DNA of 42,202 nt, from positions 1 through 42,202 of the IMG/VR virus record IMGVR_UViG_3300023256_000008, one strand, 5' to 3'. Below, piece by piece: positions 6,686 to 40,919 of this stretch; the first letter of the stretch is position 1; every line of letters begins with the position of its first letter. The translations under genes and the position numbers were made by a program. The notes below the pieces were generated by a model. The model searched no databases. It worked only from the letters and a program-made list of their open reading frames with translations, and was not told where the DNA came from. Source of the DNA: a virus (taxonomy: Duplodnaviria; Caudoviricetes).

Positions 6686-7420
6686 CTAAAAAAATTTAAT
6701 AACCTCTCCAATCTTTTTGTCTCATTTATTTATTTCATTTAATATTAATTTAACTTGGATGTCAATATCTTTATATTTTTCGTTATCAATTCTAATTAAT
6801 AATTTATTTTGATTTATGGCTTCATTATTTTCCACATAATCTCTTAATTGTGATTTTTCGAAATCATGGTTTTTATGTATTTTCCTAAAATGATACGGGC
6901 CATCACTTTCAATCCAAATGTTTTTGTCTTCTGATACAATATCTATATCGAAATTAATCACATCGGTTTTAATTCTACAATGTCTCTTGAAGCCATATTG
7001 CTCTAATTTTTTTGCCAACCCTCTTTCTATTTTTGAAGAAAATCTATCATTATTTTGATTTGATGCAATGAAGTTTTCAAATTTTTCGGGATTTTCTTTG
7101 TAAAGGGTCGCAAGTGTTTCCGAAATCTTCTTTTTTTGTTTATCACTTCACTTTCTGCCATTGGCACATTTTTGACTACAAAATTTTTTATGTTTGTCTT
7201 GACGATTTTCTCTAACGGTTACTTCGAATGGTCCATTACATATCGGACAAATTATTTCTTTTGTAATTTTTTTACCAAATCGGGCATCAACACTATTTAA
7301 AAAATTTTTTCTGCCATCTTCACTATACTTTATTTTTTTATGCTTTCATCTAACATGATTTGCTTTTTGTTGTCACTTTTCAAACTCTTCTCCGCATATT
7401 TCGCATTCATATTTTTTCAT
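6686..7420 (-). CDS. Homing endonuclease-like protein (Zn finger, NUMOD3, Vsr/DUF559-like nuclease); needs TGA=Trp x4
   Basis: 244 aa with in-frame TGA at 7373, 7346, 7148, 6722; CEICG..NHVR[W]KH, GRK[W]SDKQKKKIS, IWIESDGPYH. Confidence 0.75.
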
Positions 7421-7490: not shown

Positions 7491-8043
7491 TGGTGGAGGT
7501 GGTGGGACGTTATCTTAACTCTACTTTCTCAAACCATTTATAGTAGAGACGAGACTATCGCATCATCCCATAAGGATGTCTCTTCGCTTAGTCGTTCACG
7601 CTGGCACTACCCTTGCGCCCTGTCGTCCTATGGTAGGACTTCCAAGTCAATCAGAAGAGATTTATTCACTATACCTTTCAATACAGGTCGACAATTATAC
7701 TTATCGAACCCACGTCCACGAAGTCGCCTACTATAATTTTCTTACACACTTAGTTTATTTTACAATTTCAGATGCATCAAAAATAAACAAACCATACATC
7801 GCCCTCTTCGCCAGGTACATTGCGTTTCTACATGTTTTTATCATTGTTAGTAGTCACCAATTATCCTTCATTATGACTTCGATTTGCAGTGTAGAAAGAA
7901 TAGACACCGCACGAAGGGTGGCTTACGCCGCCATTAATTGGCTGTTGCCGTTTAATTTTGTTTTGCAACATAGTTCGTATGCTCGTTGCCATCATAGTGT
8001 GAATCATATAAGGCGGGTCTCCATGTCAAAACCGGTCACCCCC
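7491..8043 (-). ncRNA. ssrA: tmRNA interrupted by a group I intron
   Basis: GGGGGTG/CACCTCC-ACCA acceptor with G3.U70; tag frame GNSQLMAA* at 7923-7949; spliced length 358 nt. Confidence 0.92.
7508..7702 (-). mobile_element. Group I intron (195 nt, no ORF) in the tmRNA T-loop
   Basis: Exons rejoin as GTGGG-TTCGAT^T-CCCAC; 5' exon ends in U, intron ends in G; guide GTCGA pairs with exon TCGAT; P3 TCTCTTC/GAAGAGA; P7 GACTA/TAGTC. Confidence 0.85.
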
Positions 8044-13100: not shown

Positions 13101-13646
13101 TTATAATACAACAAATGCTATTCCAACTATTAACAAAACAAAATCTTGCCAAACAGCCCTTGGAACAATAATCCAACCGTTAAGAACATCCCAACTTGAT
13201 TTCTGTGGCCATAAATCATTATAAGATATATGATTAAATACTCTTTCATAAAAGAATATTCCAGCCATCGTTGCCCCCATATAATCAAACAATAATCCTT
13301 GTAATGCATAACCCTGATGTGCCAACCAAACATACATTATAACAGAACCAAACATTCCAACATTCTCGCCCATAACTCGCCATGTATGGTAACACCACCT
13401 GCCCTGAGCGGTTTTGAATAATGGGCTGTCGTGAATTCCAGGTCTTATAATATAATTGCCATGTCGCCTTTCGCTAGTTGACCACGTATATCCTTCAGTT
13501 GCACCTTCACCTACCCAATACCACATTGTGAACATTATTGCCGATGCTACTGGAGATAATCATGTAACTCCTACAGCAATACAAATAAGTGCAATCTCTA
13601 TCCAATGATTTACGACTCAATTTCCAATATCTTTAATCCATTTCAT
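13101..13646 (-). CDS. Trp-rich membrane protein; needs TGA=Trp x2
   Basis: AGGAG RBS before ATG 13646; MKWIKDIGN[W]VVNHWIEIALICIAVGVT[W]LSPVASAI runs in frame into the tracked ORF; 181 aa. Confidence 0.75.
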
Positions 13647-15668: not shown

Positions 15669-15704
15669 TGGAGCGGACGACCAGGTTCGAACTGGCGACC
15701 TCAC
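15669..15704 (-). pseudogene. 3' half of a disrupted tRNA-Gly
   Basis: TGAGGTC-GCCAG-TTCGAAC-CTGGT-CGTCCGC-TCCA. Confidence 0.8.
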
Positions 15705-15706
15705 TT

Positions 15707-16561
15707 CTATTGTGTAAATAGTTTCTTTTCTGTCCAAACTTCAAATAATATATTATTATTTTTACAATAATCTTTCATTATATTTATTTTTTTGTTATTG
15801 TTTCATATATTTAACAATCTTTTTGGCTTAATTTCTATTAATTTTTTTTTATTATTTTTATATATTACTAAAAAATCTGGTATAGTCGAATGGTTATTCT
15901 TGTCATATGGAATGTTAAATGGTTCATATTCGTATGAAAGAATGTTTTTATTATTTTCAATAATTTTAAATGCCTTTAATTCGTATGAACTTTTGTAATA
16001 CCATGTTTTATTATTTTTATTACTATAGAAATAACCGCTTACATAATTTTTATTTAGTGGCGGCTTTCCATACATTGGGTTGTTTTCGCCTTTGTTTTTT
16101 GACCATTTATTTTGTATATCATAGCATAATTTACAACAACATGTTTTTTTGGAATTTGATGTCTTGACTACAAATGGCGCATTACATACTTTACATTGTT
16201 TTATTTTTATTTTAGTAAATTTATAATTTTCTTTTGTTAAATATTTTTTGCCAGTATTTGCTTTTGTTATTTTTTGTATTGTCTCTTTTGAATGTTGTCT
16301 GCTGTTTGCACATTTTCTACTACAAAATTTTTTATATTTTCCTTTGTTAAGTTGGGTTTTAGTAAGTTCAACCATATATTCTTTATTGCATTTTTTACAA
16401 TTAAACTTATAAAATTTTCTTTCTTTTGTATTTTTTTTTGCTATTTTTTCATTTATTTTTTGTTTTGCGGGATTGCTTGGGCAGTTTCTAATATGGGCTC
16501 CAAATTGTTGAAGATTTTTAAATTTAATTTCTTTTTTACATCATTTACATATTCTTTTCAT
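15707..16561 (-). CDS. Homing endonuclease-like protein (Zn ribbons, NUMOD3, TnsA-like nuclease); needs TGA=Trp x2
   Basis: 284 aa; MKRICK[W]CKK; YKSSYE, IPDF, IEIKP then [W]NNNKK...YCKNNNILFEVWTEKKL. Confidence 0.8.
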
Positions 16562-16617: not shown

Positions 16618-16691
16618 TGGAGCGGATTGGGGAAATCGAATCCCCATCTAATGAGTGGCACTCATTTATTCTACCATTAAAATAAACCCGC
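16618..16691 (-). tRNA. tRNA-Gly(GCC), divergent
   Basis: GCGGGTT/AATCCGC-TCCA; loop GTGCCAC. Confidence 0.75.
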
Positions 16692-16724
16692 AACGTTACG
16701 CTCTACCGATTGAGCTACACCCGC
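16690..16724 (-). pseudogene. 5' half of a disrupted tRNA-Gly(GCC)
   Basis: GCGGGTG-TAGCTCAATCGGTAGAGC-G-TAACG-TTGC, breaking inside the anticodon. Confidence 0.8.
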
Positions 16725-29279: not shown

Positions 29280-29870
29280 TTATAACATTCTTTTTTTTAT
29301 TTTATCAATCATTGTTTTTAATTGTTGGGCGGTAATATAACATGCTCTTTGTCCCATAATATTTGTTGCTGATTTAATTTCATTAGTATTGTTTTTATTT
29401 TCAAATATATATGGCCTACCTTTAACTTTAGTCAAAAATTCTCCAGATTTGCCGAATATAGCATTTTTGAATTTTCTTACTTTATGGTATCCAGGAAATT
29501 CAGCATTGTTTGTTCCAATTAATTCACTTTTTTCTCCGCCCTTATATACAAATAAAACACTATCTTGCTCAAATTCTTCGCCTAACTTAACTAGATGTTT
29601 TCTTAATTTTCCACCATCTTTTAAATCTACAACAAAATAAGTTTTTTCGCCAACTTCTTTCGCTTTTGATGTACCATAATCTTCTATATATCCGCCTATA
29701 ACAGAAGTTATTCCATAACCCATTGATTGTAATAATGCTCTTAATCTTTTGTTATTTATTAAATTTATTTTTTTTATATTATTGCCTCTAAATGCTGTAA
29801 TATATCCGGTATCATGAGCAAGCGAATGATCTCGCACTCTATTTAATGACTTCTCATTTAATTTTTTCAT
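29280..29870 (-). CDS. Phage hypothetical protein
   Basis: 196 aa, AGGAG RBS, GYITAFRG, FEQDSVL. Confidence 0.75.
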   Translation of the reverse strand: MKKLNEKSLNRVRDHSLAHDTGYITAFRGNNIKKINLINNKRLRALLQSMGYGITSVIGGYIEDYGTSKAKEVGEKTYFVVDLKDGGKLRKHLVKLGEEFEQDSVLFVYKGGEKSELIGTNNAEFPGYHKVRKFKNAIFGKSGEFLTKVKGRPYIFENKNNTNEIKSATNIMGQRACYITAQQLKTMIDKIKKRML

Positions 29871-33329: not shown

Positions 33330-33397
33330 ATAATATTATACCCGATAAGGTATAATTTTGCTGAATTGTTTCTATATTATACCCGATAAGGTATATT

Positions 33398-33485
33398 AGT
33401 CAACCTATGTATTGACAATTCATAGTAAAAAGTCAACCTATGTATTGACAATTCATAGTAAAAAGTCAACCTATGTATTGACAAT
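33398..33485. repeat. 33-bp tandem repeat, about 2.7 copies
   Basis: agtcaacctatgtattgacaattcatagtaaaa. Confidence 0.9.
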
Positions 33486-33490
33486 AAAAA

Positions 33491-33963: not shown

Positions 33964-34039
33964 TGATGCAAGTGACAGAAATTAAACCTACATTGACGGA
34001 TTAAGAGTCCGTTGTAAAATCAATGTTTGCTACACCTGC
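33964..34039 (-). tRNA. tRNA-Lys(CTT), degenerate
   Basis: ACGGA-CTCTTAA-TCCGT; poor D and T arms, ends TCA. Confidence 0.6.
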
Positions 34040-34047
34040 GTAAAATT

Positions 34048-34125
34048 TGAGGTATGCGATGGAAGTCGAATCCACATCTACAGGGGTCACGATCCTGTGC
34101 TTTATTTATTTAAGTTACGCATACC
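34048..34125 (-). tRNA. tRNA-His(GTG), degenerate
   Basis: G-1/C73, C33, ends TCA. Confidence 0.65.
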
Positions 34126-34512: not shown

Positions 34513-34591
34513 TGGTACAGACGAAGGGACTCGAACCCTCATATGACGCAGGATATGATTCTGCCGCTTCATCCAATTGAGCCACGTCTGC
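34513..34591 (-). tRNA. tRNA(CAT), Met or Ile2
   Basis: Loop ATCATAT. Confidence 0.75.
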
Positions 34592-35937: not shown

Positions 35938-36068
35938 CAGGATAATATTTTTTATTCCAACGTGTCTACCAATTTCACCATTACTAACTATCAATTAGTA
36001 AGTAGGACTCGAACCTACACGACATTACATCATCAGATTTTAATTTTTGGTTTGCTGTTATTATCCTT
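35938..36068 (-). ncRNA. YrlA-like RNA (circularly permuted tRNA on a CAGCAAA stem)
   Basis: AGGATAATA/TATTATCCT; order T-arm, loop-closed acceptor TTACTAA/TTAGTAA, D-arm. Confidence 0.65.
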
Positions 36069-36677: not shown

Positions 36678-36700
36678 ATAAAAAATAAAATATATAAAAA

Positions 36701-36776
36701 TGGCACCCCCACAAGGATTCGAACCTTGACTATAAGTTTAGAAAACTTAAGTGCTCGTCCATTACACTATAGGGGC
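36701..36776 (-). tRNA. tRNA-Arg(TCT)
   Basis: Loop TTTCTAA; near-duplicate of Arg(CCT). Confidence 0.9.
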
Positions 36777-36794
36777 ATAAAAAATATAATAATA

Positions 36795-36874
36795 TGGTGG
36801 AGACGGAGGGTATCGAACCCTCGAACTAAACGTTCCATTTGTTGGTTTACGTTCAGTTTCACCTTTTCGCCCCC
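36795..36874 (-). ncRNA. 80-nt RNA resembling the tmRNA tRNA-like domain
   Basis: GGGGGCG/CGTCTCC-ACCA with G3.U70, no D-stem, long helix in place of the anticodon arm, canonical T-arm. Confidence 0.65.
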
Positions 36875-36953
36875 TGGGAACGGATTGCGGAGTTGAACCA
36901 CATTTAATACTGGCTTATGAAACCTGCCGAGATACCGACCTCGTCCATCCGTG
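36875..36953 (-). tRNA. tRNA(CAT), atypical, 1:72 mismatch
   Basis: Loop TTCATAA, CCA. Confidence 0.65.
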
Positions 36954-36969
36954 TCGTAATAATAATAAA

Positions 36970-37044
36970 TGGAGCGGGCTGGGGGTTACAATCCCCCGAC
37001 TAATGGTTGGAAGCCACTTATTTTGTCAATTAAACTAAGCCCGC
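36970..37044 (-). tRNA. tRNA-Gly(TCC)
   Basis: Loop CTTCCAA, U73; atypical T-loop ATTGTAA. Confidence 0.8.
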
Positions 37045-37063
37045 TTAAATTGTTTTTTTATTT

Positions 37064-37140
37064 TGGTCGGGTGAGCCAGAATCGAACTGGCTAATCCAGG
37101 TTTCCAGAACCCAGATGCTTATAGCCTTAGTCACCACCCG
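37064..37140 (-). tRNA. tRNA-Pro(TGG), atypical
   Basis: C1-G72, A73, loop TCTGGAA, extended anticodon stem. Confidence 0.75.
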
Positions 37141-37208
37141 TTATTTGTCTTATAATATATTGTATGCTATAAACATACAATTGTATTCCTTAAACATACA
37201 ATAAAAGT

Positions 37209-37266
37209 CAGGACATATTTATTTACTTTACAATAGTAGTTTTTTTAATTTGCTGTATATGTCCTT
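37209..37266 (-). ncRNA. CAGCAAA-family small RNA
   Basis: AGGACATAT/ATATGTCCT stem with ACAGCAAA. Confidence 0.5.
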
Positions 37267-37280
37267 TACATATATAATAT

Positions 37281-37324
37281 TGGTACCGAAGGGCAGACTC
37301 GAACTGCCAACCTTTAGATTATGA
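37281..37324 (-). pseudogene. 3' half of a disrupted tRNA(CAT)
   Basis: TCATAA-TCTAA-AGGTT-GGCAG-TTCGAGT-CTGCC-CTTCGGT-ACCA. Confidence 0.8.
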
Positions 37325-38107
37325 CTTCATAATTATTAATTCGCACTCATAACCATTATTCTTATACATTTTAAATTTATCATCCATATTTTGTTTATTA
37401 TAAGTATAATTACATTTTATTTCTACTATTTTATTTTCCAAAGGTAAGTAAAAATCTGGTATTGCTATACTATATCTTTTTTTTTGAGTATCATAATATA
37501 TAAGCCTTTTTGATTCCATTTCATATGGAATTTTTTGTTTGTCTAAATTTTTGGCATATCTTAGTTCGTAACTGCTTCTGTAAAATACTTGTTTTCCGTG
37601 CCAAGTTGTATGCCATCCATGTTTGTACTTGTTTTCACAAGGCATATTACGTCTATTATTATGCAAACAAATTAATTGAGCCTTAGATTTTCTTCTCATA
37701 GAAATTTTATGTTTATTAAAGAAATTACGTAACGATAATTCATGTATATTAAATTTTTCTTGTATTTCCAATGATGATAGTTGTAAGTTATTATATAAAT
37801 ATCATAATTTTTGTAATGCTTCGTGCCCTGCCTCTTTTAATGATAGGTCGGTATAATTTATATCTAACCTGTCAAATAATAGTTTATTTTGTATATATTT
37901 ATGACATTCAAAGCAATATTTTTTCTTACTTTTGGGCGTTTTATTATTACAACTAATACAATAAGTTTGTGTATTTTTTTGTAATGAATTGCTTATTTTT
38001 TCTTTTGTTTTTTGAGAATGATTTCGAGAATTGGCGCAACTTCTGCCACAAAACCTTCCAGAACCATAATTGCCGTCATGTTCTTTATTACAATTTTCAC
38101 ATTTCAT
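37319..38107 (-). CDS. Homing endonuclease-like protein (Zn ribbons, NUMOD3, TnsA-like nuclease); needs TGA=Trp x1
   Basis: Tracked ORFs 37802-38107 and 37319-37771 are in frame across a single TGA; YRSSYE, IPDF, VEIK; 262 aa. Confidence 0.8.
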
Positions 38108-38180
38108 AATTGTTCTCCTATATTAATAAGTATAGTCGAACCTAAAAATTTAGTATATATTTTTTTATATACCAAAAAAA

Positions 38181-38257
38181 TGGTAGCGATAACTGGACTT
38201 GAACCAGTAACCTCACAAGATATGAGCTTGGAATTCTACCAATTGAACTATATCGCC
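38181..38257 (-). tRNA. tRNA(CAT), probably Met
   Basis: GGCGATA/TATCGCT-ACCA, loop CTCATAT. Confidence 0.85.
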
Positions 38258-38270
38258 ATAATTGTATTAT

Positions 38271-38294
38271 GCCCACCAGTTGTGCTACTTCGGT
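38271..38294 (-). pseudogene. 5' fragment of the disrupted tRNA(CAT)
   Basis: ACCGAAG-TA-GCACAACTGGT; ACCGAAG is the exact complement of CTTCGGT in the 3' half. Confidence 0.7.
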
Positions 38295-38420
38295 ATAAAT
38301 TTTGAATATCTTACATCCACAAAGACCACTTCTATAAGTTGAGATTGTTTCTCAACCCTCTTATAAAGATTCTGCTAACTTTCACTTATTTTACTTATTC
38401 TAAAAAAACTTTTTACAAAC

Positions 38421-38453
38421 AAAAAAGCCCAAGACTTTAGGTTCTTGGGCTTT
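38421..38453 (-). terminator. Attenuator terminator upstream of the tRNA array
   Basis: AAAGCCCAAGA/TCTTGGGCTTT plus U run. Confidence 0.8.
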
Positions 38454-38474
38454 ATAATATATTTATATCTTAAC

Positions 38475-38606
38475 TTATATAAAGCCCGGCGGTCCCAATT
38501 CACCAAAAATCGCATCCACTGTATTCATATTTCTATGGCAATACGGACGTTCCTGTGGTGTCCATGTTGATAACGATTTGAGTGATATTGAACTTTGCTT
38601 TTTCAT
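38475..38606 (-). CDS. Putative leader peptide (43 aa, all 20 amino acids)
   Basis: AAGGA RBS; MKKQSSISLKSLSTWTPQERPYCHRNMNTVDAIFGELGPPGFI*; last codons form the antiterminator arm. Confidence 0.75.
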   Translation of the reverse strand: MKKQSSISLKSLSTWTPQERPYCHRNMNTVDAIFGELGPPGFI

Positions 38607-38924
38607 TTTGATATTCCTTTTTAATTTTTTTTGAAACTCTTTTTGTCTCTTACATTAATATATATTGAGACAATAAAGAAAACTCTATTTTTTTTGTTTT
38701 TTTTTAAAATTTGTTAACTTAGGTCTAACTCTTTTGTTTCATTCTCTAAAAATCCTGCCTTTCGGAACTATCCTTACGACTGCTTCTCGGGACTTACGCC
38801 GTAGGACATTTTCAGGGCTAATGAGAAATAAAACCATATTAACATTTCACTCTATATTCTTTTAAGTGAGCTGACACTTTAGCCATTTAACCCTATTGAG
38901 GCAGATGTGGGACTCACTTGCTCT

Positions 38925-40454: not shown

Positions 40455-40919
40455 TTATTTACCGAACTCTTCAGCTATACTTTTTATCAATATATCTAAT
40501 TCGTATCTACATGTTATTCCATTATTTTCACATTTCGCTTCAATGTATCTCATGTTGTAAGCATTAAATGGAAACCCTAATCTTATTTTGGTTGGGACTT
40601 TCCCAAGCCAATATCCAAACTCGATGTTTGTTGTAAAGCCAGGTAAAGTTTCTTTATCTCTTGGTATCCAAAATAGAACAATATCTGCTTCTTCCATAGC
40701 CTGCTCTTCTCAATCGATTTGCTTGTCATAATGAAAATCGTCAATCGAAGTAGTTTCAAATTCAGGCAATAACAATGTGCCTTCAAACTTATATTTTTTA
40801 AATAATTCAATTGCTTCTGGTCGTCAACTCTTAACGTTATTATTGCGGGGAGAAGGCCCCGCCAAAAATATTGACGAGCCTTCTATTTTAATTTCTTCTT
40901 GTGCGTATATAATGTTCAT
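40455..40919 (-). CDS. Nucleoside 2-deoxyribosyltransferase-like protein; needs TGA=Trp x2
   Basis: SIFLAGPSPR..VKS[W]RPEA...QID[W]EEQAM..ADIVLFWIPR...TTNIEFG; 154 aa. Confidence 0.85.

Follow-up and report, generated by a model that had tools for sequence, protein, structure and literature searches.

A phage tRNA(CAT) gene in two pieces around another tRNA(CAT) and the gene of a predicted TnsA-fold nuclease

How does a phage tRNA gene come to lie in two pieces around a nuclease gene and an intact tRNA gene with the same anticodon? The question is raised by a locus in a DNA stretch of 42,202 nt, which was analyzed as a whole and is called the window throughout. The window represents 42 kb of a large phage-like genome, its recognizable genes are located on the minus strand, and it contains 34 tRNA genes (ARAGORN) as well as genes for a tmRNA, two DNA methylases, two RNA ligases and a HAD RNA-repair domain. 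Identical DNA was present at two further loci (L082 and L083) and in salt-lake metagenome runs. In 2 of the 4 runs examined, the region 36800-38800 was spanned by one contig without any difference. Therefore, the split layout is not a one-off misassembly, with the reservation that the runs are possibly the source data.

The first-pass annotation had described the order 5′ fragment, intact tRNA(CAT), endonuclease and 3′ half. All of these parts were recovered on the minus strand from the sequence and the ARAGORN calls, and the features are as follows:

38264..38294, minus strand: 5′ piece of the old tRNA(CAT), reaching from position 1 to about position 32; the assignment of 1-20 is certain, that of 21-32 is probable, with decay at three positions of the stems
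38258..38263, minus strand: spacer of 6 nt, left end of the insert (from the sequence)
38181..38257, minus strand: intact, different tRNA(CAT) with encoded CCA (ARAGORN; Rfam 58.7 bits)
38108..38180, minus strand: leader with two hairpins, one AT-rich and 11 bp long, the other weaker and overlapping the GGAG ribosome-binding site
37319..38107, minus strand: nuclease gene of 262 codons, DUF7487-like, with TGA as Trp at 37804-37802
37281..37324, minus strand: 3′ piece of the old tRNA(CAT), from U33 through CCA; the last codon and the stop of the nuclease ORF coincide with its first six bases

Judged by its sequence, an old tRNA(CAT) gene was likely split between positions 32 and 33 by an insert of 939 bp (38263-37325 if the junction is at 32/33). 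The nucleotides 38294-38275 comprise the acceptor strand ACCGAAG, TA, the D-stem strand GCAC and the D-loop, and the 5′ piece probably continues beyond the previously proposed end at 38271 to 38264 (31 nt, ending with C32). Three of its stem positions, one in the D stem and two in the anticodon stem, are unpaired now. A junction at 32/33 yields a canonical loop with C32 and U33, and 6 of the 9 D-stem and anticodon-stem pairs hold; this number of pairs together with a pyrimidine at position 32 is equalled by about 4% of background positions. The 3′ piece comprises U33-CAT-AA, the anticodon-stem strand, the variable loop, a perfect T stem of 5 bp, CTTCGGT, A73 and CCA. CTTCGGT is indeed the exact complement of ACCGAAG, and this 7-mer occurs just four times on both strands of the window, with two of the occurrences being the split pieces (about 0.0025 are expected by composition per 100-nt stretch). 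The proposal that the last codon and the stop of the nuclease gene are the old anticodon loop itself also held, as TCA TAA (37324-37319) covers U33 to A38. When the pieces of 31 nt and 44 nt were joined without a gap, ARAGORN called a tRNA-Met(cat) of 75 nt without a pseudogene flag, and thus, the fragments do reassemble into a scoring tRNA. However, 5 of the 18 junctions tried were unflagged, two of these as Met(cat), and therefore the score rests mostly on the acceptor and the T arm and does not alone fix the junction.

The inner tRNA(CAT) is identical to the old gene at 27 of 45 compared positions and is not initiator-like. Three G-C pairs in the anticodon stem are a mark of initiator tRNAs, and none of the tRNA(CAT) genes in the window has them. 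A further intact tRNA(CAT) gene is located at 34513-34591 and a degenerate one at 36875-36953. Because of the additional intact copy, the inner tRNA(CAT) need not be essential, and "replacement" need not mean compensation. The leader between the inner tRNA and the nuclease gene has a predicted folding energy of -17.4 kcal/mol (z -3.2), and none of 200 shuffled sequences folded equally well. Homing endonucleases of phage T4 have been reported to be repressed by a hairpin over the ribosome-binding site (PMC2988022), and by analogy, the leader hairpins might repress translation of the nuclease.

Several features of the surrounding tRNA region are recorded here in their own right. Degenerate tRNA genes that were missed by ARAGORN with default settings are located at 33967-34039, 34051-34124 and 36875-36953 (the third is the tRNA(CAT) mentioned above). 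A tRNA-like gene of 80 nt at 36795-36874 has an Ala-type acceptor end and a T arm, and gives a weak Rfam tmRNA match (38.4 bits). A recurring element starting with AGGA...CAGCAAA at 37211-37264 has similar starts near 36067, 31149 and 29082; the copy at 37211-37264 folds into a long hairpin, part of which resembles an anticodon arm. Elements of this kind were also seen in other tRNA arrays (e.g. L123), and there was no Rfam match at the gathering score. Short tandem direct repeats are present between tRNA-Phe and tRNA-Trp (33330-33490), and a gene of the S-adenosylmethionine lyase family (PF23780, E 7.6e-13) lies within the tRNA region at 29280-29870.

The split looks clean, without an obvious deletion or duplication, and it is located in the anticodon loop. 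This could be explained if the insert behaved like an intron, i.e. if the halves paired via the acceptor stem, the insert was removed from the transcript, and the phage RNA ligases rejoined a working tRNA. The two RNA ligases and the HAD RNA-repair domain of the window would fit, and inserts in Lak phage tRNAs have been described as introns (PMC6784885). However, no group I intron match was obtained across 36700-38700 at E values up to 10, although the same type of search found one in the tmRNA gene (E 3e-5; 7530-7713). In addition, the 5′ piece has three stem positions without a pairing partner, and the other split tRNA of the window (see below) lacks the 3′ side of the anticodon arm. Removal of the insert from the transcript is thus regarded as very unlikely. 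The group I-like intron in the tmRNA gene (7530-8036) is located in the T-loop and scores below the gathering score. The tmRNA gene is directly followed by a third nuclease-like gene (7420-6686, 244 codons, four TGA as Trp), and the two possibly represent a pair of an intron and a free-standing nuclease.

With translation table 11 the nuclease ORF stops at codon 102 (TGA at 37804-37802), and it is whole only under code 4. A nonsense mutation at this site was considered and rejected, because TGA as Trp holds elsewhere on the minus strand of the window, e.g. at 40455-40919, 13101-13646 and 6686-7420, and several further ORFs open up with this reading. One other window gene was tested, that of a nucleoside deoxyribosyltransferase-like protein (40455-40919), and both of its in-frame TGA columns align with W in 119 of 119 homologues. 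The TGA column of the nuclease is occupied mostly by Y, F, V or L in its homologues and is uninformative in this respect. A TCA suppressor tRNA was not found in the window; the only tRNA-Trp found there was tRNA-Trp(CCA). Recoding of TGA in phages has already been described (bioRxiv 10.1101/2021.08.26.457843).

The nuclease gene is a stand-alone ORF, its frame is open under TGA as Trp, and its active site is intact. The protein of 262 amino acids has 221 homologues at E values up to 0.001 and is composed of N-terminal Cys motifs, a helical middle part and a C-terminal PD-(D/E)XK domain of the TnsA fold. E181, D218, E229 and K231 are invariant in 40 of 40 sequences, and the N-terminal Cys motifs are invariant as well. 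The structure model (pLDDT 92.8) matched Tn7 TnsA best (1t0f_A; Z 11.3, rmsd 3.0 over 123 residues, VIA-align), followed by mitoribosomal proteins, Vsr and I-Bth0305I (EDxHD, Z 7.9). The designation as a TnsA-like endonuclease is thus borne out by the modelled fold and the invariant residues. The match to Pfam DUF7487 (PF24308) had 21.9 bits at a cut-off of 27; the domain is present in many close homologues. Pfam, PHROGs and the fold all indicate PD-(D/E)XK, and not a GIY-YIG catalytic domain. A variant was seen at locus L304, where an HNH nuclease (778-1491), which has the N-terminal Cys module in common with the window nuclease, follows a tRNA-Lys with a group I-like intron (1609-1800); by sequence, the catalytic domains appear to be swapped on a shared N-terminus.

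The TnsA fold raises the possibility of a transposon-like or integrase-driven insertion, all the more as tRNA genes are common insertion sites. However, sequence inspection of both ends of the insert revealed neither a target duplication nor a restored 3′ end at the junctions. The insert has no second ORF, and neither an integrase nor a DDE transposase was found among the 18 window ORFs, a subset, that were scanned in Pfam. Such an insertion is considered extremely unlikely.

The window contains another case with the same order of parts (16724-15669), in which a tRNA-Gly(GCC) and a NUMOD3/TnsA-like gene are enclosed:

16690..16724, minus strand: 5′ half of an old Gly-like tRNA, with a two-base overlap with the intact tRNA-Gly(GCC) at 16691-16618
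15707..16561, minus strand: nuclease gene of 284 codons, NUMOD3 and TnsA-like, two TGA as Trp (PF08722, E 1.5e-12)
15669..15701, minus strand: 3′ piece, from the variable loop through CCA, lacking the 3′ side of the anticodon arm

The nearest neighbour of the 5′ half is Gly(GCC), with 35 of 45 identical positions. The two nucleases are only distantly alike, with local matches of 41% over 49 residues and 33% over 82 residues, and therefore the two cases represent separate events, in agreement with the independence claimed at first. Distant relatives of the Gly-case nuclease in IMG/VR were not linked to tRNAs (2 of 61 loci, window included), and its close relatives had no loci there.

Next, an unbroken version of the old tRNA(CAT) gene was sought. 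A contig of 151 nt with a depth of 2 from the salt-lake run X16 matched 37281-37324 with 5 differences in 44 positions and has a similar downstream spacer. Upstream of this match, the contig contains the last part of a D-loop, then a D-stem strand that is the complement of GCAC in the window, and an anticodon stem. By its sequence, it appears to represent the unbroken tRNA(CAT) of a related phage; it is a single record of depth 2 that extends only 16 nt past the junction and stems from a run that is possibly the source of the window DNA. Pattern scans of IMG/VR for an unbroken old tRNA(CAT) yielded 0 hits, then 31 hits without any tRNA(CAT) (one was a tRNA-Leu). The only intact tRNA(CAT) of the ACCGAA type that was seen directly follows a homologous nuclease gene (L093). 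A motif scan with the downstream spacer gave two hits, which were both discarded as chance matches in coding DNA. A joint across the insert was not found in any of the 4 sequencing runs examined. One contig of run X22 begins exactly at 37324, and 37336-37938 is uncovered in this run, which proves nothing about an unbroken allele. A donor cassette, that is, the inner tRNA allele upstream of the window nuclease, was not found elsewhere.

The genomic context of the nuclease family was analyzed at 164 fetched homologue loci, which were reduced to 110 distinct loci with E below 1e-20 and to 99 loci after removal of near-duplicates (the window's copy included). The family resides in phage tRNA arrays: at 93 of the 99 loci, tRNA genes were located within about 2.5 kb. 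At 50 of the 99 loci, an intact tRNA starts within -45 to +40 nt of the nuclease stop, and in 15 cases the stop lies inside that tRNA. A tRNA end was found within 130 nt of the estimated nuclease start at 46 of the 99 loci. The weak matches L054-L081 had a tRNA at just 5 of 28 loci. For many homologues the closest tRNA is downstream, so that the target neighbour is not fixed. Matched tRNA halves around the nuclease were present at 2 of the 85 loci with enough flanking sequence, namely the window's own copy and L017, and the full four-part layout at only 1 of 85, the window's own. Intact tRNAs flanking the nuclease had the same anticodon in 2 of 42 cases, compared with 33 of 498 other neighbouring pairs (p=1).

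Two kinds of unusual tRNAs were seen beside family members. At L004, L029, L034, L042, L053 and L126, the tRNA adjoining the nuclease looks interrupted, by eye, immediately behind the anticodon; no group I intron at these six loci was confirmed by Rfam (E up to 0.01). At L026 (upstream of the nuclease) as well as L107 and L113 (downstream), odd tRNA-like genes missed by ARAGORN have a normal acceptor and T arm, and in them an arm resembling that of the anticodon comes before a motif resembling a D-loop.

Close relatives were found to differ in whether a homologue occupies a given site; at the window locus itself, the comparison is limited to the one short contig. In Lak-B genomes, the homologue is present in 5 of 9 and absent from 4 of 9, with a flank identity of 99.9%. 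Comparison of Lak-B6 and Lak-B2, with flanks that are 99.8-100% identical, revealed that the empty site is an intact tRNA-Phe(GAA), whereas the filled site shares the Phe(GAA) 5′ half, has an insert behind the anticodon, and continues with a 3′ part that differs and then with the nuclease. Thus, an insert-bearing Phe(GAA) 3′ part and the nuclease have taken the place of the 3′ 40 nt of the intact tRNA-Phe(GAA). In Lak-A2, the Phe allele with the insert occurs without the nuclease. In L135 compared with L116, the place of a tRNA-Asn(GTT) is taken by a different Asn(GTT) together with the nuclease (flanks 84-92% identical), and L154 compared with L031 points in the same direction, with flanks only 70-78% alike. 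Such swaps agree with the notion that the broken tRNA is replaced, which did not hold as a rule. In Lak-A2, the nuclease precedes a tRNA-Val remnant that lacks the D and anticodon arms, with no spare tRNA in the insert, while A1 and C1 have an intact Val(TAC) at this site. In L017, the nuclease is flanked by decayed halves whose acceptor strands match, and the locus has no tRNA.

The results with Lak-A2 and L017 show that a nuclease can wreck a tRNA gene without replacing it. It is thus conceivable that the nuclease and the inner tRNA(CAT) arrived in two separate events at different times, in either order, and never formed a mobile unit. The other half-state, a tRNA nested in halves without a nuclease, was identified in a scan of IMG/VR. 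The scan asked for a D-arm too closely followed by the next tRNA start; it recognized canonical D-arms only and was blind to anticodon and nuclease. It returned 35 loci, of which 21 start with a tRNA-type 5′ half, and 4 of these 21 have a matching 3′ half and T arm, which was sought up to 1.8 kb downstream (less than 1 kb of DNA was available in 4 loci). Lys(TTT) halves surround an Asn tRNA in L283 and a Pro tRNA in L307, both without an ORF inside; an HNH gene lies just outside the halves in L307. In L300, an Ile tRNA is nested without an ORF, and the outer anticodon is unreadable. A nested Thr(TGT) case has also been described (PMC6784885). As an observation apart, orphan tRNA 5′ halves directly before intact tRNAs were seen in L282, L285, L288-L290, L293, L296, L299, L303, L306, L309 and L311; their 3′ halves were not found within up to 1.8 kb.

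Two other loci contain an ORF between the halves. L313 consists of a half, Phe(GAA), and an ORF of 147 codons that ends inside the 3′ half. The ORF had no Pfam hit, and its Cys/His pattern is one that we take to be HNH-like. L308, which was caught via another motif, has a half, a PD-(D/E)XK gene (Phage_endo_I, E 2.8e-9), a Phe(GAA) overlapping the ORF end, and the 3′ half. The outer halves of both loci are probably Phe(GAA), their nearest neighbours among 963 reference tRNAs according to a method that gave the correct isotype for 129 of 178 tRNAs at similarity 36-38 and for 192 of 401 at 33-35. A survey for a half, a same-anticodon tRNA, a nuclease and a half had been proposed earlier; the present search, which was blind to these features, recovered two loci with a nuclease that are probably Phe-for-Phe, as well as three without a nuclease, of which L283 and L307 have different anticodons. 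Both independent splits with a nuclease inside probably have the same anticodon (2/2), and neither of the two readable ones without a nuclease does (0/2); the numbers are small. The question whether anticodons match better than by chance received a divided answer: these two splits speak for it, as Phe accounts for just 38 of the 767 tRNAs in the family loci, and the flanking intact tRNAs (2/42 versus 33/498) speak against it.

For two separate events, a chance match is eased by the fact that CAT is common (47 of 767 tRNAs). However, the two readable nuclease-free nests both differ in anticodon, and in all four cases with a nuclease the anticodons are the same or probably so, although the two in the window had been picked for the match, which leaves L313 and L308 as the other two. 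Moreover, two rare insertions at one site would be needed, twice in the window. Separate arrival is, in our opinion, a serious but rather unlikely explanation. A tRNA-linked homing cassette is supported by the family context, the filled and empty sites, and L313 and L308. The general class of tRNA-replacing cassettes suggested by the first-pass annotation is plausible; the single four-part layout among 85 loci and the flanking anticodons weigh against it, and the split layout is a minority outcome.

The arrangement was compared with known systems. Tn7-like transposons have the TnsA fold in common with the window nuclease, but the insert has no TnsB or TnsC partner ORF and no duplication, as far as the 42-kb fragment extends. 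Unlike integrative elements at tRNA genes, the locus has no duplicated core, and the inner tRNA is a whole different gene. Archaeal split tRNAs are another known case of tRNAs in pieces; their halves are expressed and joined by trans-splicing, with complementary leaders that form a bulge-helix-bulge. Homing endonucleases of group I introns lie within a ribozyme core, for which no match surrounds the window ORF. I-Ssp6803I (PD-(D/E)XK) and I-Bth0305I (EDxHD) also use a restriction-like fold for homing. I-Ssp6803I resides in the group I intron of a tRNA-fMet gene, i.e. a tRNA(CAT) target. Both are intron-encoded, and splicing restores the host gene, whereas no intron was detected at the split locus and the host gene stays broken. 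The F-Tfl endonucleases of phage T5 are of the HNH type. F-TflI, F-TflII and F-TflIV resemble the window nuclease in being encoded by free-standing genes in a phage tRNA cluster (PMC2330249).

The closest likeness is to SegB of phages T4 and T6, a free-standing nuclease gene between tRNA genes that is absent from close relatives. SegB cuts within tRNA genes, drives its own segment and spreads with flanking tRNA genes; its homologues are often near tRNAs, and cases have been reported in which the segB end was joined to a tRNA gene at a microhomology (PMC2330249, PMC13096335, PMC2988022). In contrast to the TnsA-fold PD-(D/E)XK nuclease of the window, SegB is a GIY-YIG enzyme that cuts near the 3′ end and recognizes a T-loop motif of many tRNAs (PMC2330249), and split halves around a same-anticodon allele were not seen in these three sources. 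By analogy, the window nuclease may work like SegB, with a nuclease of another family. HEG islands are alike in that a nuclease and a linked allele spread together; they carry protein-coding cargo, and no tRNA splitting was seen in the source (PMC10448857). Lak megaphages have tRNA "introns", one of which is predicted to encode a tRNA (PMC6784885). Thus, a tRNA-like gene is nested in a phage tRNA gene there as well, and Lak phages carry homologues of the window nuclease beside altered tRNAs, but the nesting was read as introns, and the word "endonuclease" is absent from the main text of that paper. In the literature searched (main texts, few subscription journals), neither halves around a same-anticodon tRNA plus a nuclease nor a description of this TnsA-fold family in tRNA arrays was found. 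In summary, the split layout is real, intronless homing in tRNA clusters is known, and the split same-anticodon arrangement is new relative to the literature searched.

Based on the sequence comparisons, we consider it probable that tRNA(CAT) genes are the target of a free-standing homing endonuclease that moves together with an allele resistant to it, and that the halves are the scar of a non-homologous repair. With regard to cleavage, specificity and the order of events, we infer the following course. In a mixed infection, the nuclease would cut the tRNA gene of the recipient in the anticodon arm, while being linked to an allele that it does not cut, because that allele is diverged, interrupted or ruined. 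Usually, the donor allele or its flanks would be alike enough for homologous repair, and a clean allele swap without halves would result, as in Lak-B and L135. In the window, the donor allele may have been too different (27/45), and the break would have been closed by non-homologous capture of a segment with the tRNA and the nuclease. This capture would have destroyed the target, left both dead halves, and joined the end of the ORF to what had been the anticodon loop. The identity of the anticodons would then follow from the target specificity, since the nuclease is tied to an immune version of the gene it cuts, and not necessarily from compensation. A point against this course is that SegB recognizes a T-loop motif, so that anticodon-specific cutting has no direct precedent in the literature surveyed, as far as its main texts extend.

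We hypothesize, with slightly more doubt than confidence, that a general gene drive is at work, in which a nuclease targets a single tRNA isoacceptor gene, cutting it at the anticodon arm, and is linked to an immune allele of that tRNA. Such drives might have been built repeatedly from unrelated families (TnsA-fold, HNH) and might cause the turnover of alleles within phage tRNA arrays; their scars would be the split halves, the nested tRNAs and some of the "introns" reported for phage tRNAs. The split point would be a precise predicted cut site for an uncharacterized nuclease family. If this were true, annotators would no longer interpret such halves as introns. The usual explanations for phage tRNA arrays are codon supply and escape from host tRNA nucleases. 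If a widespread nuclease family swaps tRNA alleles anticodon by anticodon, the diversity, duplication and decay within the arrays would partly reflect selfish homing.
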